From the sequence record PV805633.1: DNA of 64,000 bases. One strand, given 5' to 3'. The stretch comes from a phage. The notes beneath the pieces were generated by a model that was not told the origin of the DNA, made no database searches, and worked only from the letters and a program-made list of their open reading frames with translations. This document shows, one piece after another, positions 25,854 through 50,376 of this stretch. Every line of letters starts with the position of its first letter. Positions within the stretch are counted from its first letter, which is position 1. The position numbers were made by a program, and so were the translations under genes.

Positions 25854-28800
25854 TTAGTTTACTAAGTTCATCCAAGGGTTTAGGTTGTGAGCACGAAGCC
25901 CCTGACCAAAGCCCCATGAGTAATCCAGACTACCCTTAGCAGCAATACTAAAGATGTTGTCCTGAATAGGTAAGCCAACGTTACCAAACATGGTAGGAGT
26001 TGGAGCCAGCATCGCCATTGCTGCATGTACTGGGTTATTGCGAATCATGGACACTGCAACTTTTGCAGAACGAATCTTAAAGTTGTAGAACCACATCAAA
26101 CCAACACTTTCCATATACCCACGGAAACGACCAGGCAGACGGTCATAGTTAATGAACTCTTCGGTTACACGTCCCAGTGCTTCTTCACGAGTCTTACCTT
26201 TACGCTGAGTCAGTTCATCATAGATGATTGCTTTAGCGATAAAGTCAGAGTACTCAACCGTCTTCTGGATACCCTGGAACAGAGCAGTATCTTTAGTGAT
26301 AAGTGCATAACGACCAGCAGCACGTACAGACTTAGGTAACTTATCCGCCAGCTTTTCCATGTATTCGTGAAGTTTGCCTTCAGTAATCAGGATGTCATCA
26401 CGACCAATACCAGCATCTGCAATTGAAGAGAACTCACCAGCTTCTATCAGAGGCCAGATACTCATACGCTTATGGCTATCAGTAATGGACTGAATCTCAG
26501 CCTTAAGTTTACGAATCTGATTCGGGTTAGTAGCTGCACGTAATTCTGCTTCTGCATCTACCTGACGTAAACGAGATTTAAGGTACTGGTTAATCTCAGC
26601 AGTTTTCTGTGGAATGCTCTTAGCAATGTTCTTAACTGGCACACCACGAGCAACCATCTGGTAAAGGTTAGCCAAAAAGTTAACAACAGGTACGACTACT
26701 GACTTAACTACAATCAGAGTCTTAGCATCTTTAACTAAGTTTTGAACCAGGTTCTCACCACCCATTAAGTACTTATAGGCGCGGTTACCGGCTAAACCCA
26801 GAATAGCTTTTTTAAAAGTATTAAGCGTTTCCGGGGACCAACGAGAATTACCAGACCAAGCATCACCAATCGAAGCTGCACGATAGCCAAGTGCATCATT
26901 CAGCATGTCACGACGTACCCACAGTTCACCCTCACCAAACAGTTTTTCTGCTTTCCGTCGAGTTTCGCTGTTCATCAGCTTAAGAGCATCAGCAGTTACT
27001 GGGTCCAGCTTAGAACCAAAAAGGTTCACGTACTGGGACTTATTAGCAGCAGACATCTTAATGTCTTCCTTGTACATGCTATACAGGTTCTCAATCAGCA
27101 TATCATTGAAACGCTGAGCCTTAGCTTCTTCCACCTGACGTCCACGCCATACACCAATTGCACGGGCAAGATGATTTTCACCTTCAATATGCTTCAGCAT
27201 ATTAGGGTTAATTGATTGCTCATAAGCAACCACATCACCTTTAGCATTATATACAGGCAGCAGTGGTTCATTACCACGTTCACCACGAGCTAGTGCTTTA
27301 GCGATACGGTCTACAGAAGGCTTGTCAGTAATACGACCAGCTACCATGGAACCCATAGTAAAGCCTGTACCGAGGTCTACACCACCAGCAGTATTACGAA
27401 CGTTCTGTAGAATACCTTGTGAGAACGGAGCCTGTGCCTGTACTGGGGCAAAGTAGTAGCTACGTGCCAGACCTCGGTTAGCAGAGCTACCTTGATAAGT
27501 ACCCAGACGAACATAGGACTTCTCTATCAAATCACCAAACTCGCTATCTTCAGCAACAACCAGACTAACACCCTGTTTAGTCTCACTAGGGATATACCCT
27601 TTGTACTGGTTCAGGGTTGCACGCATATTAGATTTGGCTTTAGCCATTTCATCTTTACGCTGCCCAACCAGGTAAGAAGTAGCAAAGTCCATTCCCTCAA
27701 CTTCTGTCTGAGCCAGTGAAGATAACATCTCACGGTCGGACTTGTTCATTGCTTCCAGTGCATACAGGGTAATAAGTTTATCCAGTTGAGCTACATCTAC
27801 AATAGAACGAGTAGTCTTACGTTCACCCAGCATACGAGAGATTGCAGTAGCATTACGCAGCAAGTTTTTACCGACTGTGCCATTAATCATGTACTGAGCC
27901 AGTTGCTTAGATTTACGGTTAATCAGAGGCCAGTTACGACCAGCTTGTTTCTGCAAATCTGCTTCCAGCTTATTCACTTCACGGTCAACAATCTTCTGGT
28001 CTGAAAGCAGGTCACGAATTTCAGCCAGAGACATGGTGTCACGCAGGACAGCTAAGTCAGTTTTACCCATACCAGTGTACATTGCTTTCCACTCATCCTT
28101 AGTCAGCTTACGGCTGAACTTAGATGCGATAGTGGTAGGCAGGTGTTCACGGAACTGCTGACGGTCAGCCTGCACCTGTGCACGGACTGCTTTAATCAAA
28201 TCGTATACAGAAGCATTGCTCTTAGTACGACCGGTTAAATCATTAACCAGGTCATGGAAAGGTTGCCATACTTTACCCTGGTTCATTGCAACCATAACGC
28301 CTTCAGCTACGTTTGCACCATTCTTCTCTGTAGCAATAGCAGCCATTAGTTGTGCAGCATGAGCAGCACCTTTGACCAATGGGTTCTTGGTATTAGCTGC
28401 AACTTCACGAGCACTTTCTAAAACACGAGTAGACAGTACATCAATAGAGTCCACCAAATACTGGTTAGCACGGTCAATAGCATTACCACTAGGAGTAGCA
28501 ACGGAATCATAGAATGACTGTGCATTTAGGCTAGTCTGCATGATTGTTTGAGCCAGTGCATCCATACCTTCCTGTACGTTGGTAGCTTTGGTATCACCTG
28601 CTACACGAGCATTCAGACTAGCCATTGCAGCAGTACCAATGTTAGTCAGCATTGCATCAACGGTATTCCCAGATTTCTTATCTGCTTTCATAACAGGAAT
28701 GTTAGCCAGTACGCTACGTACCTCTTCACTTACCATTGCCAGACCAACAAAGGTAGGCAGTATTGAAGAACGACCCTGTGCATCAAACTCAATATTGTTA

Positions 28801-31800
28801 GCACCCATGATGGTATCGAACTTCTGCTGTGCATAGTAACGGTCAGCAGGGTTAGTACTATCTGGGTCAGTCATGAATGATTCAACAGTCAGGTTCTTAG
28901 TAACGTGTGCATAGTATTCCTGTGCACGAGAAAGAGCAGCCGGACTAATAGCAGCTTCAGTAGCGAGTGCAGCAACAATGTTAGTAAAGAGACGCTGTTC
29001 CTGCATATTCATGGTAAAGCCATGAGCCTGAACATCACGGGTTACTTTAGTTGCGTGCTTTTTCGCATCAGAGAACTTACCTTCACGGATTACTTGCTGT
29101 ACTGGTTCTGAACCAATGTAGTTAGTAATCAGCTTATCAAAGGTCTGTCCTAACTCTTCCAGACGGGTATTGTCACCATATGCTTTGTTATGGAACAAGG
29201 TAGTATCTTTGGCTACAGCAGCCGTAGGAGCCTGACCACGCATAACTACTGAAGAGTTAAACAGTAAGCCAGAGAACATATCATCTGCATTAGCAGGTGC
29301 TTTCTTGCGACCAAATACCAGACGTTTGATTGCTTCATATACTGACTGAACCATGGCTTTCAGTGCAGTGGTCTTCTTCTGCTTACTAATTAATTCACGG
29401 TTAGTTAAGCCCCAAGCCATGTACTCATTCAGTGCAGCAGCTTTAGCCATTGCTGGTTCAATAAAGCCGTTAGACAAGTGACCATTAATGGTATTAAGTG
29501 CATCAGCATATGCTTCACGTACTGCCGGAGATTCATCCATAACATCCAGATTACGGAACTGGTTCATCAAGTCTTCAATATTCTGGACTGCTTCATTAGG
29601 AGTACCCTCATAGTGAGCCAGTACAGATTCAAAAGTAGAAGCATGTACTAATTCATGAACCAGAGTCTCTAGGGAAGGGGTAACTAAGTAGATGGTTTTA
29701 TCATCAAAGTTAGTCCAGCCATACGCATTACCAGCTTCGGCAGCTTCAATATCTTCCGGTGCTGGACGAGTAATGTTCTTCTCAATAGCATAGGCATCCA
29801 GTTGAGCAGGAGTACCGTAAACAACTTTGTAGTCTTTAGCAGCAAGGGATTTCTGTATCTCTTTCAATACTGCTTGCTGTTCTGGAGACATCTCTTTAGC
29901 CAGCTTGGTAATAGCAGTATTAGACAATAGACGTACACCAGACTTAAGTACACGACCAACTTGTTCCATTGCTGGCACTTCTTTAGTAGGTACTTCTTTC
30001 ACTGGATCTGCTTTAGCAGCACGTACTGCATCACGACGCTTATTTAATTCAGCATCAAACAGTTCGTTCAGCTTAGCTACTTGCTGGTCTACAGTCAGTC
30101 CCTCAAGAGAAATTTTACCGTTGTTCACATAAGGAGCACCTACAGCAGCCATCTGGTCAACAGTGGTCTGTACCTGGTTCATTACTTTGTGGCGAATATC
30201 CACACTTAAAGCAATGTTACGCAGGTTACGCTCAATAAGGTTAACACCGGAATTCTTAATCATATCAATCTTATACTGCCTGTCTCCCTCAACGCGACTG
30301 ATATGAGAAAGCTGTTCAAAATCTAAAGCGGAACGGGCAATGTCATCAATTGTCTTATCTGACAACTTATCAAAGTCTACATTCTTCAAGAACTCAGAGA
30401 AGGATTCATATACAGCCTTGATAGGATTCCCCTGCCAGGAAGTGTATACAGCCTCGTTTGCTTTACGACTTGCATCAGTGATGTCACTAATACCAATGTT
30501 CATACCATCAAAGATTTTCAGGGTATTCTTCGGAGCACCTTTCATAGTAGAAAGGGTCTGCATCATCATGCCATCACCAGTACCGATGGTCATAAATGGA
30601 ATACCTGCAACACCTGCTTGTGAAGGAGCATAGATGCTCATTGGCACACGCATACGGTCATCTAAGTTGGTAGCCAGTACTTGGTTAGCAACGTCAGTAC
30701 TCTCACTGCCAGCAAGGTAGAAAGTCTGTGAGCCAGTCTCAATCATTGGAGCCAATGGAGATAATGATTCCTGGATTTCATTCAGTTCTTTCTGTGTTAA
30801 GAAATCACCCTTCTTCCAGGTTGGGTCTTTTTCTTTTTCTGCTAGCTTAGCCTGTACTGCTTGCTGGAACATATCCTGCAATACCAGGGACTGAATCTGA
30901 GTAGCCTTCTGCAAGTTCTCAGTAGAGTACATCAGACCTTCACCAACAGTATTACGGATACCAGTACGCATTGGTTCAACGAACAAATGGAGCATATTCT
31001 CTTGTAAGTTCTTCAGAGCATTACCGGATACGGTAAATTTCTGAGGGTCTAACTTACCAGTCAGAGCACCATCTACTTCCTTAATAAATAACTTACCCTT
31101 ACGCTTAGCTGGAATCTTACCGGTCAGTGCTTCCATAGAAGTAAGGAAAGTATCCAGCATAGCCTGAGCATCTGCCTCAGACGCAGCCTCCTTACCAAAC
31201 ATTGCCATAGCCGGGGAAATGCTAGGGTCAGCAGCACGTGCTTGCAGAACGTCGCTGAAGCGTTCGTAGATGGTGTCAGTAATTGCACTGACCATCTTGC
31301 CAGCAATACCACGAGCACCAGAACCATAGATGGTAATGGTCAGAGGGTTCTTAGCGATACCACGTTTCAGGTCCAGAGTACCATCTTCATTCAGGTTAAA
31401 GTCTTTAATGAACAGGTCCATTAACTTCTGGAGATGATTTATCTGGTTCATAACTGGAACGTTGTTACGGTAAGTAGTACGTAACTCATTCAGTGCTTGT
31501 TGTAGACCATTGGTAGATGCTTCATACAAGTCAACATTATCGTCGATAGAACAATGTTCATTCATCGTTTTACCAGCACGACCGAAAAACAAACCACCTT
31601 TAGCAGTGTTCTTAATCCAGTCTGGGGTGAACTTACCACCAGTCATTAATACCATTGCATTGATTGGGCCGTTGGTTACACCATCAGCTTCAACGTACAG
31701 AGGGGTAGTAAAATTAGCACGGTCATCACTGTTCAGGTAACGGGCATATTCCATCAGAGCCATGAGAGCCACGAAGGATTTGTTATCACCCAGAGAGGTT

Positions 31801-34800
31801 TTCAGAATATCTACTGCATCAGTAGGTAAGTAGCCAGACTTATCAAACTCGACCATCATATCAACAGCAGGTTTCAGATTACCTTCCAGGGCTTTGGTCA
31901 GATTTTCAGACATAGCTTCACGGGACATTTTATGTACCTTGATGCCCAATGCCTGAGCCAGTCCTAGCTGGAAGTCAGAGAACGCTTGGCTGTTTTCATT
32001 ACTCAAGTCGATAGTAGAGAAGGTTGGCAGAATTGCTTCACGAACCAGTTTACTGGATTGTGGGTTATTCTTACCAAGCATCTGCATACGACCTACACGG
32101 GTCATGTTGTAACCGTAGTGGATAGGTGTATCCAGTCCATCCTCTTGTTCTTTTAGCTGATTAATTAAACCAAACAAGGAATCATATGCCATAGACACAG
32201 ACAGGTTTTTACCTTCCAGAGATTTGGCAGTGTTTTCATTCAGCAAATCAGGATTAAGAGAACCAGCACCCATCAGTTCCAGAATGCCGTCTCGACCTAA
32301 TGCTTCATAGAAATTAACCATCGGCATGTGTACACGGAACTCCGTAGCCTGTTCAGCTTTCAGAGCAGCTTTCTGTTCTGGGGTATTCCTAACCGCAGGG
32401 TTACGTAACTGAGTTTGAGCCACAGAAGGAATGTCGTCACCGAAGTACGTTTTCTCTTCCGGGTTTACCAAAACAGCTTCTTCAATTGCTGTAAGGAAAT
32501 TATTAATAGGGTCTTTATCAGCCAACTTATTAATAGTGTACAAACCAATAGTCTTATTAGAGTCCGGGTCAATCTCAGACACATCCAGCATAGTCTCAGT
32601 AACTGCACCCATCTCGATGAGGGAAGACAGAATCTCTGTAGCCATTGCCACTGGAATACCCTTGGTATAACCCAGTGGTGCATTAGGGTTACGGTTTAAA
32701 CCCCAGTAGGATTCAATCTTTTGAGCCAGTGAGTTAGTAGCCTCAATCAGAGTCTGGGCATTATCAAACTCAGCCAGAATACTTTCTGGTAACAGAGATG
32801 CATCTACACCAGTAATAGCAGCTACGTCTTTCATGTCTTTAATGGCAGCATTCTGTGTAGCAGTCAGTCGCCATTGCAGACCGGCAAGTACAGCAGTCTC
32901 TAACAACTGGTCATTGAACTTAAAGGTATCCCCGTCTTTCTCTACGATGTTAAGTAACTTACCACCTACCCAACGGTTAGCCTCAGTACCTTCTGCAAAA
33001 CGTTTACCAACATTTTTATTAGCAAGGAACTTAGCCAGTCGTTCAGACAGAGTAGCCTTCAGAGTTTCCCCAAAGTCCATCAAGTCCTGATAACGTTCTA
33101 ACACATCACCTGCGAGAACGTTATTTTCTTTTTGAGTGAACGCTTCAAAGCGAGCAGCAGAAGACAGTGCTTTCTTGATATCAGCCAAAGGAGATTCAGA
33201 GCCAATGGTACGGGACTTAGGTTCTTCCGGTAAGGTAAATGCTTTCAGGAACTGGTTCGGTGTCTTCTCATTGTTATAGACAGGGAACACTGCTTCCATT
33301 CCAGAAAGGGGTTTGCCACCCACTGTATAATCTGCTTTCAGCTGAGCCAGTGATACTTCATCCTTCTCCACGTTGTTAGTGTTACGACCAGAGGTATCTA
33401 CACCAACCAGTATCTGTGCATTATTAGCTTCAACGAAAGACTGAACAGTATTGAATTGTTCAGCAGTCAGCTTCTGATTATCAAACAGTTGCAGAGATAC
33501 GAATGGTTGTTCACTACCTTTATAGAAGGTAGAGCGAATAGCACCTGTATCCAGAGACATATCACGATAACCATCGTGACCAAATACATCGGACAGGCTG
33601 ATATGGTCGCCATTAGAACCAACCACAGTACCATCAGCAAACAGCCATGGACTCTCCCTACGATCACCATACTTATTAAGAGTTTCCTGTGAAATAGTAT
33701 TTTCTTTCACATAAGCATCTCTCTCAGATTCAGTAGGTTGTTCGACGGTATCCTCATTAGTGGGGGTAGCCTCATCTACAACCGGGCTAGTCTTTTCAGA
33801 CTTAGGTACTTTCTCTTCCTGTACAGGTGTAACTTCTGGCTGGGAGAATGTATTACGTACATAGTTCATAAAATCATTACGTGCTTGAGAAGGAGAAGAC
33901 CATACTTCCCGTGTGCTACGTAAACTAAAGATTCGACCTTCAGGAGTCATTACGTAAGGTACATTTGTTTCACCGTACTTAAATGAAGTGAGCACGTCTG
34001 ACTTACCAGTAACAGTGCTTTCCCCTGGAATGACAATAGTCTTACCACCAGTAGAAGGAACAGCACGAACACCCTCAATATCCTTACCAAGAGAAATATA
34101 CTCTTTACCGTTGTAATCAAAGTACTGACCTATCTGCATATAGGTAGCTTGTTGCTTACCAGTAAACTCAGCAGTTTTCATCTCCGGGCCATTAGGTACA
34201 GACGTACTTTCAGACTTAGGCTTAGATACTTTCTCTGGTTCTGACTTAGACTCTACAGTGTTAGGAGCAGTTTTATTGTTTACCACTGGTTTAGCTTTAG
34301 ATTGTACAGTAGTAGTGTCCTCTTGCACTGGTGCAGGGGTTTCATCAACCTGATTCACTGGTTCATTAGTCTGTTGAGACTGAGTGGCATTAAGACCACC
34401 TTGACGGAACTCTTTAACTACCTGGGCAGCTGGCTTGTTCAGACGTGAATCCAACGAGGTAACTTTCACATGAGAAACATTAAGCTCCGGGTAAGCCGTA
34501 GCAAGTGCGTTAGCAATATCAGCTACGGTCTTAGCTTCCAGCGCTACTTGCTGGGCAAACTTAACAGACTTGGTATCATAAGGATTGACACCGAGGCCAG
34601 TACGACTACGTACCCATTCACGGGTAGGCGTGAGAGCCTGATAATGAACAGACTTATTCTTATCCGCATTCCCCGAAATCAGATGCTCATTCAACGCTCC
34701 GACCTTATTCTGCATGTGCTGGGCGAACTTCATAAAATCGCTCAGATAAGCGGAGGCCAAATCGAAGTTACCAGAGTTATACGCAGAACGAATGCGTTTC

Positions 34801-37100
34801 GCATGTTGCAACGCAGAGTACTGTCCTTCATTAGAACGAGACTCGTCGGTTTTAATCTGTTTACTAACGATGTCTTGACGACGTAAGCCCAGTTCTTCTG
34901 CTTTAGCATCATACTCACGTGCACCCTGTAATAGAGCAGCAGCTGATTGCAGGGCAGCACGTTGACGATTATTCAGTGTAATCTTACCTTCACTCGCATG
35001 CTTCAGAACCATGTTCACTGAATCTGCATCCAGTACTTCTGGAGACATATCAGCAGCCATAGCAATGTTGTTTGCTTGGGCTTGGTTAGCTTCTTCAGTA
35101 GCTTTCAGTTTACCTGCTTCAGCCTGTTCCTGAATCATAGAATGGATGGCACGGAATGCACGAAGTACTTTAGGGGTATTCTGTATGTTAGCCATCAGGC
35201 CGGAGAACTGGTCTACGATTGCAGCAGCAGGAGAACCTTGTTCCAGATTAGCCAGAGCACCTGGGTCACGGTTAATGAAGCTATCCATAGACATGATGTT
35301 GTCATACATCTGGATTGCAGCTTCCATTTGAACGTTAGGGTCTTCAGCAGTATTAACCAGGTCAGCCATCTTCTGAATAGCTTCCACACGGTTAGTGGAA
35401 CCAGAAACAGCTTCACGGATTACTGGGCTGGCTTGTTCCAATTCTACTGGGTCAAACTTCATTGCCTGGGTTAAGTCAGCAGCATACTGGGTAGCAGCAG
35501 CCTTCTCTTCTGGAGTGATGTCCATTGCATCTACTGCTTCCTGTACAGTTGCTTGTGCTTGCTCTGCTTGAGCAGCAGCTTCCTGTGCAGCAGCATTAAC
35601 CGTAGCATCAGCTACAGGGGATGCTTGTTCATTACGCTTAGCAACTTCTTCACCACGTTGAACCAGGATGTTAGTAAGAGGGGATGCAGCTTTAGCTAAT
35701 GTTTTACCAACCAGAGAAGCACCTGCCAGAGTAGTACGAAGAGCGGGGCCAGCAGCAGCACCGGCAGCTTTAACAGTTGCACCTGGAGCTTGAGCAACCC
35801 CAGCACTACCGAAGCCATAGAGTGCACCAAGACCCGCTTGCTCACCGACACCTTTGAGGGTATCTCGGGATGCATCAACATTTTCCTTGATTGCACGGTT
35901 CTGTGCGAACTGACCAAAGCCTGATTGAGTACCCTCTTCAAAAGTCTGAGCACCAAGGTTAGTAAGGGCTGCCCCAGCAGAACCAACCCTCATGGGGTTA
36001 AGTTCAAACTTAGATACTAACGGACCCATAGCAGCAGCAACTGGAGCAGTTAAGCCAGCAGCAATGATACCTGTTTCGGATGCAGTCTGACGACGTGCTT
36101 CATCAGGAGATAAACCATCAGCAATATGTTGTTGGTAAACAGGAGACTTACTTGCCAGTTCTGGATGGGACATCTTCATGATTTCAGAAGCAGTCTGTTG
36201 GTATGCACCACCAGCTTCCATACCACCGATTGCAATAGCAGGTGCAGCAACACGACCAGTAGACAATGCAACCTGTGCAGGACGTGAACCTAACCCAGCA
36301 GCTAAGGTAATACCCTTAACAGCTTTATCACCACCTACCATTACTTTACCGAGTGCAGATACACCACGGATAAGAGGACCACCAGTAAAGAGGGAACCAA
36401 CACCTTCACTCAGTCCATCTGAGGCAGCCATACCATTATCAAGTGTATTAGCAACAGAGTCGAAAGCGTCACGACCAATGCGAGACAGGGAGGCAACCAA
36501 ATCGCTCTCCCCATTTTTGATGTCCTGTTCATAGAGTTTCTGGTTCTTTTGAGCAGAAATCTGGTTCTGATTCTGAACAACTTTACGGGTAGCATTCAGT
36601 GCATCAGACTGTAGACTATGCACGCCTTCATTCAACCAATCCATCCCGGAAGCAATGGTTGCCCCGGCATTATCATTGACCAGACCTGCGCCAAGAGCAG
36701 CAATGCCCCCAAGGGTATTAGCAACACCAAGACCAACACCAGAAAGAGTATCGCCAAATGCTTCTGCGTTAGTACGCTGTTTAGATAAGTCCTGACGTAC
36801 AGCATCCGCAGCATTAGCTCGGCTATTAAGAATCTGTAAACCTTGCTCATTACCGTACTTATTAATGATTTCTAAAGGGGAGGCTTGAGTGAAATCTGCT
36901 TGAAGTGAACCTGGTTCGAATGCACCGATTCCAAGATTACCTACTCGTCCAGTCTGGAGATTGTAAGCATTCTCTGGGGTTAATTGGAAAGGGTTTTGCC
37001 CTTGTGCAGCTTGCTTCTGAGCGGTTGCAGTAGAGACATCGACTTGCTTAGCATTAGTGATGCTGTCTGCGAAACCTGCCAGACGGTCAAATGTTGACAT
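25854..37100 (-). CDS. giant virion-encapsidated RNA polymerase-like protein (N4 gp50-like), ~3748 aa
   Basis: Single uninterrupted 11.2-kb ORF; AGGAAA SD before ATG at 37100 (track starts at upstream TTG 37118); size and position match the N4-type vRNAP. Confidence 0.8.
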   Translation of the reverse strand: MSTFDRLAGFADSITNAKQVDVSTATAQKQAAQGQNPFQLTPENAYNLQTGRVGNLGIGAFEPGSLQADFTQASPLEIINKYGNEQGLQILNSRANAADAVRQDLSKQRTNAEAFGDTLSGVGLGVANTLGGIAALGAGLVNDNAGATIASGMDWLNEGVHSLQSDALNATRKVVQNQNQISAQKNQKLYEQDIKNGESDLVASLSRIGRDAFDSVANTLDNGMAASDGLSEGVGSLFTGGPLIRGVSALGKVMVGGDKAVKGITLAAGLGSRPAQVALSTGRVAAPAIAIGGMEAGGAYQQTASEIMKMSHPELASKSPVYQQHIADGLSPDEARRQTASETGIIAAGLTAPVAAAMGPLVSKFELNPMRVGSAGAALTNLGAQTFEEGTQSGFGQFAQNRAIKENVDASRDTLKGVGEQAGLGALYGFGSAGVAQAPGATVKAAGAAAGPALRTTLAGASLVGKTLAKAASPLTNILVQRGEEVAKRNEQASPVADATVNAAAQEAAAQAEQAQATVQEAVDAMDITPEEKAAATQYAADLTQAMKFDPVELEQASPVIREAVSGSTNRVEAIQKMADLVNTAEDPNVQMEAAIQMYDNIMSMDSFINRDPGALANLEQGSPAAAIVDQFSGLMANIQNTPKVLRAFRAIHSMIQEQAEAGKLKATEEANQAQANNIAMAADMSPEVLDADSVNMVLKHASEGKITLNNRQRAALQSAAALLQGAREYDAKAEELGLRRQDIVSKQIKTDESRSNEGQYSALQHAKRIRSAYNSGNFDLASAYLSDFMKFAQHMQNKVGALNEHLISGNADKNKSVHYQALTPTREWVRSRTGLGVNPYDTKSVKFAQQVALEAKTVADIANALATAYPELNVSHVKVTSLDSRLNKPAAQVVKEFRQGGLNATQSQQTNEPVNQVDETPAPVQEDTTTVQSKAKPVVNNKTAPNTVESKSEPEKVSKPKSESTSVPNGPEMKTAEFTGKQQATYMQIGQYFDYNGKEYISLGKDIEGVRAVPSTGGKTIVIPGESTVTGKSDVLTSFKYGETNVPYVMTPEGRIFSLRSTREVWSSPSQARNDFMNYVRNTFSQPEVTPVQEEKVPKSEKTSPVVDEATPTNEDTVEQPTESERDAYVKENTISQETLNKYGDRRESPWLFADGTVVGSNGDHISLSDVFGHDGYRDMSLDTGAIRSTFYKGSEQPFVSLQLFDNQKLTAEQFNTVQSFVEANNAQILVGVDTSGRNTNNVEKDEVSLAQLKADYTVGGKPLSGMEAVFPVYNNEKTPNQFLKAFTLPEEPKSRTIGSESPLADIKKALSSAARFEAFTQKENNVLAGDVLERYQDLMDFGETLKATLSERLAKFLANKNVGKRFAEGTEANRWVGGKLLNIVEKDGDTFKFNDQLLETAVLAGLQWRLTATQNAAIKDMKDVAAITGVDASLLPESILAEFDNAQTLIEATNSLAQKIESYWGLNRNPNAPLGYTKGIPVAMATEILSSLIEMGAVTETMLDVSEIDPDSNKTIGLYTINKLADKDPINNFLTAIEEAVLVNPEEKTYFGDDIPSVAQTQLRNPAVRNTPEQKAALKAEQATEFRVHMPMVNFYEALGRDGILELMGAGSLNPDLLNENTAKSLEGKNLSVSMAYDSLFGLINQLKEQEDGLDTPIHYGYNMTRVGRMQMLGKNNPQSSKLVREAILPTFSTIDLSNENSQAFSDFQLGLAQALGIKVHKMSREAMSENLTKALEGNLKPAVDMMVEFDKSGYLPTDAVDILKTSLGDNKSFVALMALMEYARYLNSDDRANFTTPLYVEADGVTNGPINAMVLMTGGKFTPDWIKNTAKGGLFFGRAGKTMNEHCSIDDNVDLYEASTNGLQQALNELRTTYRNNVPVMNQINHLQKLMDLFIKDFNLNEDGTLDLKRGIAKNPLTITIYGSGARGIAGKMVSAITDTIYERFSDVLQARAADPSISPAMAMFGKEAASEADAQAMLDTFLTSMEALTGKIPAKRKGKLFIKEVDGALTGKLDPQKFTVSGNALKNLQENMLHLFVEPMRTGIRNTVGEGLMYSTENLQKATQIQSLVLQDMFQQAVQAKLAEKEKDPTWKKGDFLTQKELNEIQESLSPLAPMIETGSQTFYLAGSESTDVANQVLATNLDDRMRVPMSIYAPSQAGVAGIPFMTIGTGDGMMMQTLSTMKGAPKNTLKIFDGMNIGISDITDASRKANEAVYTSWQGNPIKAVYESFSEFLKNVDFDKLSDKTIDDIARSALDFEQLSHISRVEGDRQYKIDMIKNSGVNLIERNLRNIALSVDIRHKVMNQVQTTVDQMAAVGAPYVNNGKISLEGLTVDQQVAKLNELFDAELNKRRDAVRAAKADPVKEVPTKEVPAMEQVGRVLKSGVRLLSNTAITKLAKEMSPEQQAVLKEIQKSLAAKDYKVVYGTPAQLDAYAIEKNITRPAPEDIEAAEAGNAYGWTNFDDKTIYLVTPSLETLVHELVHASTFESVLAHYEGTPNEAVQNIEDLMNQFRNLDVMDESPAVREAYADALNTINGHLSNGFIEPAMAKAAALNEYMAWGLTNRELISKQKKTTALKAMVQSVYEAIKRLVFGRKKAPANADDMFSGLLFNSSVVMRGQAPTAAVAKDTTLFHNKAYGDNTRLEELGQTFDKLITNYIGSEPVQQVIREGKFSDAKKHATKVTRDVQAHGFTMNMQEQRLFTNIVAALATEAAISPAALSRAQEYYAHVTKNLTVESFMTDPDSTNPADRYYAQQKFDTIMGANNIEFDAQGRSSILPTFVGLAMVSEEVRSVLANIPVMKADKKSGNTVDAMLTNIGTAAMASLNARVAGDTKATNVQEGMDALAQTIMQTSLNAQSFYDSVATPSGNAIDRANQYLVDSIDVLSTRVLESAREVAANTKNPLVKGAAHAAQLMAAIATEKNGANVAEGVMVAMNQGKVWQPFHDLVNDLTGRTKSNASVYDLIKAVRAQVQADRQQFREHLPTTIASKFSRKLTKDEWKAMYTGMGKTDLAVLRDTMSLAEIRDLLSDQKIVDREVNKLEADLQKQAGRNWPLINRKSKQLAQYMINGTVGKNLLRNATAISRMLGERKTTRSIVDVAQLDKLITLYALEAMNKSDREMLSSLAQTEVEGMDFATSYLVGQRKDEMAKAKSNMRATLNQYKGYIPSETKQGVSLVVAEDSEFGDLIEKSYVRLGTYQGSSANRGLARSYYFAPVQAQAPFSQGILQNVRNTAGGVDLGTGFTMGSMVAGRITDKPSVDRIAKALARGERGNEPLLPVYNAKGDVVAYEQSINPNMLKHIEGENHLARAIGVWRGRQVEEAKAQRFNDMLIENLYSMYKEDIKMSAANKSQYVNLFGSKLDPVTADALKLMNSETRRKAEKLFGEGELWVRRDMLNDALGYRAASIGDAWSGNSRWSPETLNTFKKAILGLAGNRAYKYLMGGENLVQNLVKDAKTLIVVKSVVVPVVNFLANLYQMVARGVPVKNIAKSIPQKTAEINQYLKSRLRQVDAEAELRAATNPNQIRKLKAEIQSITDSHKRMSIWPLIEAGEFSSIADAGIGRDDILITEGKLHEYMEKLADKLPKSVRAAGRYALITKDTALFQGIQKTVEYSDFIAKAIIYDELTQRKGKTREEALGRVTEEFINYDRLPGRFRGYMESVGLMWFYNFKIRSAKVAVSMIRNNPVHAAMAMLAPTPTMFGNVGLPIQDNIFSIAAKGSLDYSWGFGQGLRAHNLNPWMNLVN

Positions 37101-37164
37101 AGCATGTTTCCTGTTCAAACTTATATCGTATATAGGTAACCTACTCTACAGTAAGCCAGTGTAA

Positions 37165-49010: not shown

Positions 49011-49511
49011 CTATTCAAAAAGTTTACGGTCAGCCTGAATTTGCTTACCCAACTCAATTAGTTGGTTGTCACGGAGTCTAACAGTTGCCCGGAGTTCTTC
49101 AACCAAACGTCTGCCTTCTTCAAGACTGTTGTCGAGTCTGGCTGCATGGCTTGCAAGACTTCTGCACTCAAGGGTTCCGGCTTCGGCTTGACGTTTATAT
49201 ACCGATGCTCGTCTTTCAGACTGTTGCATCCGGCTGTCGTAATCACTGCTAACGCGAGCAAGCTCGCTTGCGTAATTACTCTCAGCCGTCTGCAACCGGG
49301 AAGTAAGTAACCCGACTTCATAACTATGGTTTCTTTGGAGAGCATTGTATTTGTCCTGTAGTTTTTGTGTTGCCTTCTGGTCTTCAACCTTTTGAGCATC
49401 CCATCTCTTTTGGACAGTAGACTGTCCATTGGAATTGCCCCAAAAGTAAATGGTGGCCCCGAGGACCACCACCAGAAGATAAGGCCAACCTTTAGAGATT
49501 AGCATCTTCAT
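49011..49511 (-). CDS. Rz-like i-spanin (N-terminal TM helix, coiled-coil periplasmic domain)
   Basis: [27 protein letters not shown] followed by a charged coiled-coil region; GGAGG 7 nt before ATG 49511; contains an embedded lipoprotein ORF. Confidence 0.65.
49058..49321 (-). CDS. Rz1-like o-spanin lipoprotein embedded within the Rz gene in another frame
   Basis: Signal peptide with lipobox-like ...[12 protein letters not shown], Pro-rich mature region; wholly inside Rz. Confidence 0.55.
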   Translation of the reverse strand: MKSGYLLPGCRRLRVITQASLLALAVITTAGCNSLKDEHRYINVKPKPEPLSAEVLQAMQPDSTTVLKKADVWLKNSGQLLDSVTTN

Positions 49512-50126
49512 TACATGCCTCCAGTGGTACATTACCGATTCGGTTAGCTACCCAACCATACGTAAAGTCTGGCATGTTCAATGAGGTGTAGTGGTTCAAT
49601 TGTTTAGCATCAAGCAACTTAATCATTACCTGACATGCTGCAACTTTGCCTCGTTTTTTCTGTAATGCTTTATATGCATTAACAGTACCTGCACCGACTT
49701 TACCATCAACTTGTATTTTAGGGTAGTCTTTGCCATCACGGGACATTTCATTAAGGGATTGCTGCAACCACTTAGCTGGTCTGGTTACACCGGTATTAAC
49801 ACCAGCATCAACCAGTTTGTGTGTTACAGCAGGAGATATATCAGCGAAGGCTACGAAGTTAGGCTTAATAACGTAGTCATCAATGTATATCTCAGCAGCC
49901 ATTTCTTTCGATAAACCCTTCATGGAACCATCCCAACCATACTCAGTAGCCAGAACTTCTTTGTGAGACTTAGCTACTGATTGGGTAATACCATGATTGG
50001 TTTCCCCACCTGGGTCACGAGGATTGTTTACGTACCCCCTTCCATATAGAACACTGCCCCCAGAATAGCAGCGATAACTCCTCCCACCGCACCCCCTTTT
50101 GCAGCAAGTTTCTGTTTAGCTTTCAT
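49492..50126 (-). CDS. GH108 N-acetylmuramidase endolysin with PG-binding domain and N-terminal Gly/Ala-rich TM (SAR-like) segment; frame broken at a C5 run (50035-50039)
   Basis: Frame 0 from ATG 50126 encodes MKAKQKLAAKGGAVGGVIAAILGAVFYMEGGT*; the -1 frame continues with the family motif GYVNNPRDPGGETNHGIT and the track ORF 49492-49923; combined length ~210 aa. Confidence 0.65.
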
Positions 50127-50376
50127 GGGAATCTTCCTTTGGATGGAAACGTATTAGTCTGCCCACAATGTTTAAGGCAAACAGTGCGATTGTAATACTG
50201 GAACCATGTGGAATATCTTCAAGGATGTGACGTGGTAGTCCTGTTAGCATTGGTTGGATAATATCTACTGTAGAAAACAGAATTAATCCAAATGCACTAA
50301 TCTGAACAGATGCCCACTTCCAGGACTTCTTCCAGTTAGGAACTAGCCCTATTTTTCTTTTTAGCTTGCGAACCAT
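50116..50376 (-). CDS. holin-like small membrane protein (2 predicted TM)
   Basis: GGGAGA 8 nt upstream of ATG 50376; hydrophobic segments WASVQISAFGLILFSTV and SSITIALFALNIVG; directly upstream of the endolysin. Confidence 0.5.
   Translation of the reverse strand: MVRKLKRKIGLVPNWKKSWKWASVQISAFGLILFSTVDIIQPMLTGLPRHILEDIPHGSSITIALFALNIVGRLIRFHPKEDSHES

Follow-up and report, generated by a model that had tools for sequence, protein, structure and literature searches.

The spanins of bacteriophage N4, gp60 and gp60a, fully complement a spanin-defective lambda lysogen (Rz/Rz1 amber), and mature gp60a consists of 56 residues (bioRxiv 10.1101/2025.11.12.688109). The same work assigns to gp61, gp62 and gp63 of N4 the roles of SAR endolysin, lysis regulator and pinholin, respectively (bioRxiv 10.1101/2025.11.12.688109). 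Kongari et al. (2018, PMC6139136) placed these spanins in an embedded i-spanin family and an o-spanin family, both named 'N4 (12)', whose members are N4, Bp4, EC1-UPM, pSb-1, vB_EcoP_G7C, PhAPEC5, PhAPEC7, JWAlpha/Delta, RG-2014, ECBP1 and vB_EamP-S6. For G7C and PhAPEC5/7, the supplement of that paper lists the o-spanin as an embedded precursor of 87 aa with a mature part of 56 aa (PMC6139136).

The locus at positions 49011-49511 of the window, that is, the whole analysed stretch of 64,000 nt of a phage genome, is almost certainly a two-component spanin of an N4-type (G7C-like, Gamaleyavirus) coliphage. The source bacteriophage was typed as G7C-like N4-type (Gamaleyavirus) at ~96-98% identity, and its 1.9-kb lysis region is 96-98% identical to those of the Escherichia phages G7C, ST4, PhAPEC5/7 and Bas96 (Gamaleyavirus, Schitoviridae). 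Bacteriophages G7C, Bas96, Mimir124, PhAPEC5/7, Bp4 and EC1-UPM have essentially the same genes in the same order, with 98-100% identity in the mature o-spanin and 96-99% in the i-spanin. The window differs from this group in having L, and not S, at residue 6 of the o-spanin, in a few i-spanin substitutions and in a 1-nt deletion that its endolysin gene alone carries.

At the corresponding place, database records contain a Rz-like spanin, an o-spanin or a 'Rz/RzI spanin, embedded'. Comparison with annotated spanins, which the earlier note on this DNA had proposed as a check, finds the same pair in three close relatives: the G7C record describes gp60 and the embedded gp60' as a putative Rz/Rz1-like spanin, the Bas96 record holds an i-spanin gene of equal length (501 nt) together with an 'o-spanin' CDS with the identical length of 264 nt at the corresponding position, and the Mimir124 record contains a manually added embedded feature. 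Pairs of i-spanin and o-spanin are also annotated in the records of Paxi, Pokken and Meara.

Like N4, the window has its spanin genes between the endolysin (gp61) and portal genes, nested in the +1 frame, with the o-spanin stop codon 47 nt before that of the i-spanin and a mature lipoprotein of 56 aa. Both proteins show family-level similarity to N4 gp60 and gp60a, identity being 80% in the mature o-spanin, 79% in the overlapped part of the i-spanin and 58% in the whole i-spanin (57.9% over residues 15-166 by tblastn, E=6e-39), whereas the N-terminal 100 residues of the i-spanin are ~40% identical. The signal peptides are unrelated, as that of N4 is short (MKSLLILLLTSTIVG followed by the lipobox Cys) with a canonical I-V-G-C lipobox and that of the window has a longer n-region and T-A-G-C. 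From the family listing, the annotated relatives and the presence of the N4 homologues in the same order, it follows that this pair is an already catalogued element whose homologue has been tested in N4, and that the earlier note had correctly identified a known element. The pair represents the expected last lysis step of an N4-type bacteriophage, with little importance beyond its correct annotation.

The earlier note had labelled the pair as Rz/Rz1, which is appropriate for the class of architecture but not for the sequence family. As in lambda, the i-spanin gene contains the whole of the o-spanin gene in the +1 frame, the products would be a small outer-membrane lipoprotein and an inner-membrane protein of type II that has two helical or coiled-coil segments, and the spanins close the lysis cassette; in addition, the N4 homologues replace Rz/Rz1 functionally. 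However, neither spanin gave a match in Pfam-A at E<=0.01, the Rz and Rz1 families included, and the pair is therefore not a sequence member of the lambda families but belongs to the separate N4 spanin family. The PHROG matches of the locus to other Rz-like families were weak (E=4e-5 to 5e-4). Mature lambda Rz1 has ~40 aa and relies on Cys29. The mature o-spanin of the window is longer, with 56 aa, has no internal Cys and carries a PxPxP cluster in contrast to the penta-proline stretch of lambda Rz1. A further difference is its conserved C-terminal segment, which is listed as partly helical (Kongari supplement, PMC6139136), and the general point on spanin cysteines is discussed in the same paper (PMC6139136).

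The lysis cassette and the i-spanin gene

All the lysis genes of interest are on the minus strand (Table 1). The cassette runs in the order gp63 (pinholin), gp62, gp61 (SAR endolysin) and gp60/gp60a, with the spanins last, and the window carries homologues of each of these N4 genes in the order found in N4. The gp62 homologue is labelled as 'holin' in the records of G7C and Bas96, and the G7C record describes gp63 as 'similar to gp63 from N4'. The spanin genes are thus located inside the cassette, adjoining the endolysin and holin genes: the first 20 nt of the i-spanin gene overlap the end of the endolysin gene and, on the other side, the portal gene (756 aa; SU10_portal, E=5e-151) begins 8 nt from the i-spanin stop codon.

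Table 1. Coordinates of the lysis genes and spanin features in the window, with the basis of each assignment.
Feature	Position	Strand	Basis or remark
i-spanin gene, Rz equivalent, 166 aa + stop	49011..49511	(-)	Translation; homologue of N4 gp60 and G7C gp60
GGAGG Shine-Dalgarno	49518..49522	(-)	Read from the sequence, 6 nt upstream of the i-spanin ATG at 49511
Predicted N-terminal TM helix of the i-spanin, ~residues 9-25	49437..49487	(-)	Hydrophobicity and AF2
o-spanin gene, Rz1 equivalent, 87-aa precursor + stop	49058..49321	(-)	+1 frame; homologue of N4 gp60a and G7C gp60'
Putative o-spanin signal peptide: n-region, h-region, T-T-A-G before Cys	49229..49321	(-)	Translation and Kyte-Doolittle (KD) hydropathy
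Lipobox Cys codon, residue 32 of the 87-aa precursor	49226..49228	(-)	Would be mature +1
Mature o-spanin domain, 56 aa; dual-coding with the i-spanin C-terminal helix	49061..49228	(-)	Identity and variable sites
Alternative o-spanin ATG, giving a 95-aa precursor with a 39-aa signal sequence	49343..49345	(-)	Conserved in the clade
Endolysin (N4 gp61-type SAR N-acetylmuramidase; GH108 + PG_binding_3)	49492..50126	(-)	Pfam, PHROG 315
gp62 homologue	50116..50376	(-)	PHROG 1356 holin, 3.1e-31; Pfam DUF7940; G7C gp62 annotation
gp63 homologue, 110 aa	50361..50693	(-)	PHROG 5211 at 3.2e-49

The position of the spanins immediately downstream of the endolysin, as the earlier note had described it, holds, but the endolysin ORF is interrupted in the window. 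In the relatives the endolysin is encoded by one 636-nt gene, while in the window 1 nt is missing in the G-run at 50035-50039, uncompensated, which splits the gene into a 32-aa ORF (50028-50126, from the SAR domain through YMEGG) and a 143-aa ORF (49492-49923). The sequence reads GAAGG-GGGTAC where the relatives have GAAGGAGGGTAC or GAAGGGGGGTA, or, in a shorter view of the site, GAAGG-GGG against GAAGGAGGG or GAAGGGGGG. The protein matches Pfam PG_binding_3 at 3.4e-8 and, weakly, the C-terminal half of Glyco_hydro_108 (E=0.0022, 18.9 bits, under the Pfam cut-off of 21.2 bits).

This deletion is most likely a homopolymer error of sequencing or assembly. If it were real, the lysis cassette would not work, and the spanins, intact but functionally stranded, would belong to a non-viable or defective variant. 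Such a genuine frameshift is improbable. In the window, the endolysin is cut by a single uncompensated deletion after 32 aa, at the conserved YMEGGY segment that opens the catalytic domain, and the deletion was found in 0 of the 12 relatives aligned (13 aligned sequences). However, a G homopolymer (GGGGG here, GGAGGG or GGGGGG in the relatives) is a classic miscall site, the remaining endolysin is undamaged and the spanin genes are intact, and an endolysin-null lytic bacteriophage is not expected to propagate. The probable homopolymer error would mislead automated annotation.

The outer gene of the locus matches PHROG 6197 'Rz-like spanin' over its full length (E=3.5e-77), and its product, which ends in ADRKLFE, is 95-99% identical to Gamaleyavirus spanins by tblastn. 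Its Shine-Dalgarno sequence is also that listed for the EC1-UPM i-spanin, GGAGG (Kongari et al. supplement, PMC6139136). The Kyte-Doolittle maximum of the protein (1.61, 19-residue window) falls at residues 3-21, and K2 and K7 precede the hydrophobic stretch at residues 9-25, which suggests a type II topology with a single N-terminal TMD. In the AF2 single-sequence model, helix makes up almost the whole protein (H9-111 and H116-165, mean pLDDT 78). Heptad hydrophobic periodicity is good in residues 32-60 and 113-165, where the hydrophobic fraction at positions a/d is 0.62-0.75 versus 0.19-0.23 elsewhere, and these two regions match the pair of coiled-coils that the supplement of Kongari et al. 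gives for the i-spanin of G7C (PMC6139136). The periplasmic domain is therefore predominantly alpha-helical or coiled-coil in these predictions, and the description of a Rz-like gene with a TM helix and a coiled-coil agrees with the hydrophobic stretch, the helical model, the heptads and the PHROG match.

The embedded o-spanin gene and the conservation of both frames

The o-spanin gene lies wholly inside the i-spanin gene, in its +1 frame, from either of two possible starts (49321 or 49345). The first of them is that used in the earlier note, in the Bas96 record and by Kongari et al., and its translation gives the 87 aa in a different frame that the note had reported. The precursor begins with a positive n-region, continues with an uncharged hydrophobic core (KD maximum 2.15, 11-residue window) and reaches ITTAG and then C. 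It passes a PROSITE-PS51257-type lipoprotein rule, with Cys32, a K within residues 1-7 and an uncharged h-region, and by this rule it has a signal peptide with a lipobox Cys, as the earlier note had proposed. The signal peptide is long, with 31 or 39 residues depending on the start. In E. coli, Asp at +2 keeps a lipoprotein from sorting to the outer membrane; residue +2 here is Asn and not Asp, and outer-membrane sorting would therefore be expected. The lipobox T-A-G-C has T at -3, not L/V/I as in the strict consensus [LVI][ASTVI][GAS]C, from which functional deviants have been reported (PMC6139136). The sequence LLPGC at residues 6-10 was considered as an alternative lipobox and rejected, since it has no preceding signal sequence and is poorly kept in the relatives, with SLPDC in Moo19 and no counterpart elsewhere.

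The mature domain had been described as short and Pro-rich. It is indeed short, with 56 aa, but Pro-rich is an overstatement, as Pro accounts for 4 of the 56 residues (7.1%), and a KPKPEP cluster contains three of these. The embedded ORF gave no Pfam or PHROG match of its own; embedded ORFs are usually not called and are consequently missing from the libraries, so the absence of a PHROG match is not evidence against the gene.

Distant relatives were gathered by tblastn against the phage collection, and viral contigs gave nine close relatives. With the i-spanin as query, 159 phage records were matched, down to ~31% identity in truncated matches and to ~37% in matches covering most of the protein. 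Seventeen annotated relatives of at least 12 genera (N4, Moo19, KP8, inbricus, Axy11, JWDelta, HN01, Fifi067, RiverRider, Paxi, Meara, QDWS595, CRC2, Rexella, G7C, Bas96 and Mimir124) were compared with the window. The bacteriophages of these 18 Schitoviridae genomes have as hosts Escherichia, Shigella, Klebsiella, Pseudomonas, Achromobacter, Burkholderia, Erwinia, Xanthomonas, Stenotrophomonas and Alcaligenes. The +1 frame presents a hydrophobic stretch, a lipobox Cys and a mature domain of 54-63 aa in all 18 genomes, with the frame offset always +1, the Cys invariant and a strikingly conserved core in the mature domain. The signal peptides differ between genera while hydrophobicity and lipobox are kept, which is the free divergence expected for signal peptides.

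Across 15 lineages, the mean pairwise identity was 0.605 for the mature o-spanin, 0.613 for the i-spanin encoded by the same overlapped nucleotides and 0.288 for the N-terminal part of the i-spanin outside the overlap. Where both frames are coding, conservation is thus about double that of the remaining i-spanin (0.61 vs. 0.29), a clear illustration of dual-frame constraint. This agrees with the comparison of 13 close relatives, nine IMG/VR contigs among them, where the fraction of variable nucleotide sites was 0.11-0.12 within the embedded gene (0.113 in the mature-domain stretch) versus 0.27-0.29 in the endolysin and in the part of Rz before the overlap. All these data clearly point to selection on both reading frames, and this comparative evidence is decisive for the embedded gene. 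Loss of the embedded frame in relatives, which the earlier note had named as an observation that would speak against it, is not what the 18 genomes present.

The possibility that such an ORF arises by chance was evaluated with a null model in which the Rz protein was kept fixed and its synonymous codons were resampled in 20,000 trials. ATG ORFs of 87 aa or more arose in an alternative frame in 5.8-16% of the trials, so that ORF length is weak evidence alone, while an ORF meeting the lipoprotein rule appeared in just 0.5-0.8%. As length was not significant, weight was put on the lipoprotein rule and, above all, on conservation. The embedded ORF could be an unexpressed chance frame, with the outer membrane disrupted by the i-spanin alone or by another factor; the length frequency in the resamplings and the lack of a profile match of its own would fit this. 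However, this explanation is extremely unlikely, because 18 genomes retain the lipobox Cys, the +1 offset and the highly conserved mature domain with an identity of just ~29% in the N-terminal parts of their i-spanins, variable sites are less than half as dense in the overlap, lipoprotein-rule ORFs come up in less than 1% of the resamplings, and the homologous pair of N4 has been shown to be functional. As far as sequence comparison can tell, conservation has already effectively refuted it. The nested two-component spanin that the earlier note had recognized is thus borne out by the nesting, the dual-frame conservation, the annotated relatives and the tested N4 homologues.

When the lipoprotein rule was applied to the six frames of the 64-kb window, two ORFs satisfied it, the o-spanin and 33467-33670(-). 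The latter is a 67-aa hydrophobic ORF lying out of frame inside a 3754-aa ORF (25854-37118) that presumably encodes the N4-type virion RNA polymerase. It consists of a run of hydrophobic residues and was rejected as a second lipoprotein, being most likely a chance match.

In the Burkholderia phage vB_BpP_HN01 (locus 389-1153), the i-spanin frame has no stop codon at the usual place and runs ~90 codons into the region of the portal gene, giving an ORF of 254 aa. In the record of this bacteriophage, the embedded ORF is the only one of the two that is annotated, under the name 'Rz/RzI spanin'. The long ORF reflects a sequencing error or else an extension of the C-terminus that is unusual.

The start codon of the o-spanin

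The coordinates 49058-49321 and their translation hold, but the start codon of the o-spanin is uncertain between ATG 49321 (49319-49321) and ATG 49345, which lies eight codons upstream. It is quite possible that o-spanin translation in the G7C/Moo19/KP8 clade begins at ATG 49345 and not at 49321, or that both are used. ATG 49345, which precedes the Cys by 39 codons, occurs in all members of this clade and follows AGGA (49354-49357) at a distance of 8 nt, with an SD duplex dG of -4.0 to -5.0 kcal/mol. ATG 49321 has no SD (duplex dG -0.9) and is changed to ACG in KP8 and in two close relatives, L022 and L026, by a TAT to TAC substitution that leaves the encoded i-spanin unaltered. On the other hand, a lipoprotein signal peptide of 39 residues, 22 of them in the n-region, would be unusually long, the Cys would fall beyond position 35 of the PROSITE-type rule, and the more distant relatives show good SDs at ATGs just 20-24 codons before the Cys. 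In addition, a strong SD may be dispensable for initiation within a gene that is itself being translated. The mature lipoprotein is identical whichever of the two starts is used.

The lengths annotated for the o-spanin gene are 372 nt in G7C (gp60'), 264 nt in Bas96 and 258 nt in Mimir124. The 123-aa o-spanin that would begin at 49429, as in G7C gp60', was rejected because Bas96 has an in-frame stop codon downstream of that position and because no hydrophobic segment precedes LLPGC. The commonly annotated o-spanin start of Gamaleyavirus may thus be the wrong ATG. If 49345 were the true start, the o-spanin would have a signal peptide of ~39 residues with a non-canonical T-A-G-C lipobox, which would be a minor refinement of annotation and mechanism and not a new kind of system.

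Predicted mode of action and periplasmic cysteines

The mode of action was modelled on the paradigm of lambda Rz/Rz1 and N4 gp60/gp60a, starting from what the sequence shows, namely its features, the nested genes, two conserved frames and the homology to the tested N4 pair; from this analogy we infer lipidation, topology, complex formation and membrane fusion. The i-spanin would be anchored in the inner membrane by a single N-terminal TM helix, with type II topology, and its ~140 periplasmic residues would form two long helices. After export, the o-spanin precursor would receive its lipid on Cys32 and be processed by signal peptidase II, and the mature protein, with Asn at +2, would be sorted to the outer membrane. 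The C-terminal parts of both proteins would then bind across the periplasm, the conserved C-terminal segment of the o-spanin probably contacting the C-terminal helix of the i-spanin, for which the same nucleotides code. After degradation of the peptidoglycan by the endolysin, the complexes would collapse, leading to fusion of the inner and outer membranes and release of the progeny.

The definition of the embedded two-component spanin (Summer 2007; Kongari 2018) includes at least one periplasmic Cys in the pair, for intermolecular disulfide-linked homodimers. Here the i-spanin has one periplasmic Cys, C116, and the mature o-spanin has no Cys besides the lipidated one. For this reason, a disulfide-linked homodimer would be possible only through Cys116 of the i-spanin. 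The equivalent of Cys116 is absent in JWDelta, Meara, CRC2 and QDWS595, and this residue is therefore not universal in the N4 spanin family. In several members of the family, the Cys116 region is replaced by ERNRLASHAA, ERDSLARHAA and so on. The o-spanins of the members lacking Cys116 have no internal Cys either, which makes these pairs candidates for cysteine-less spanins and is relevant to the proposal that disulfide-linked dimers are universally needed. Kongari et al. (2018, PMC6139136) noted that periplasmic cysteines are missing from about 4% of two-component spanins.
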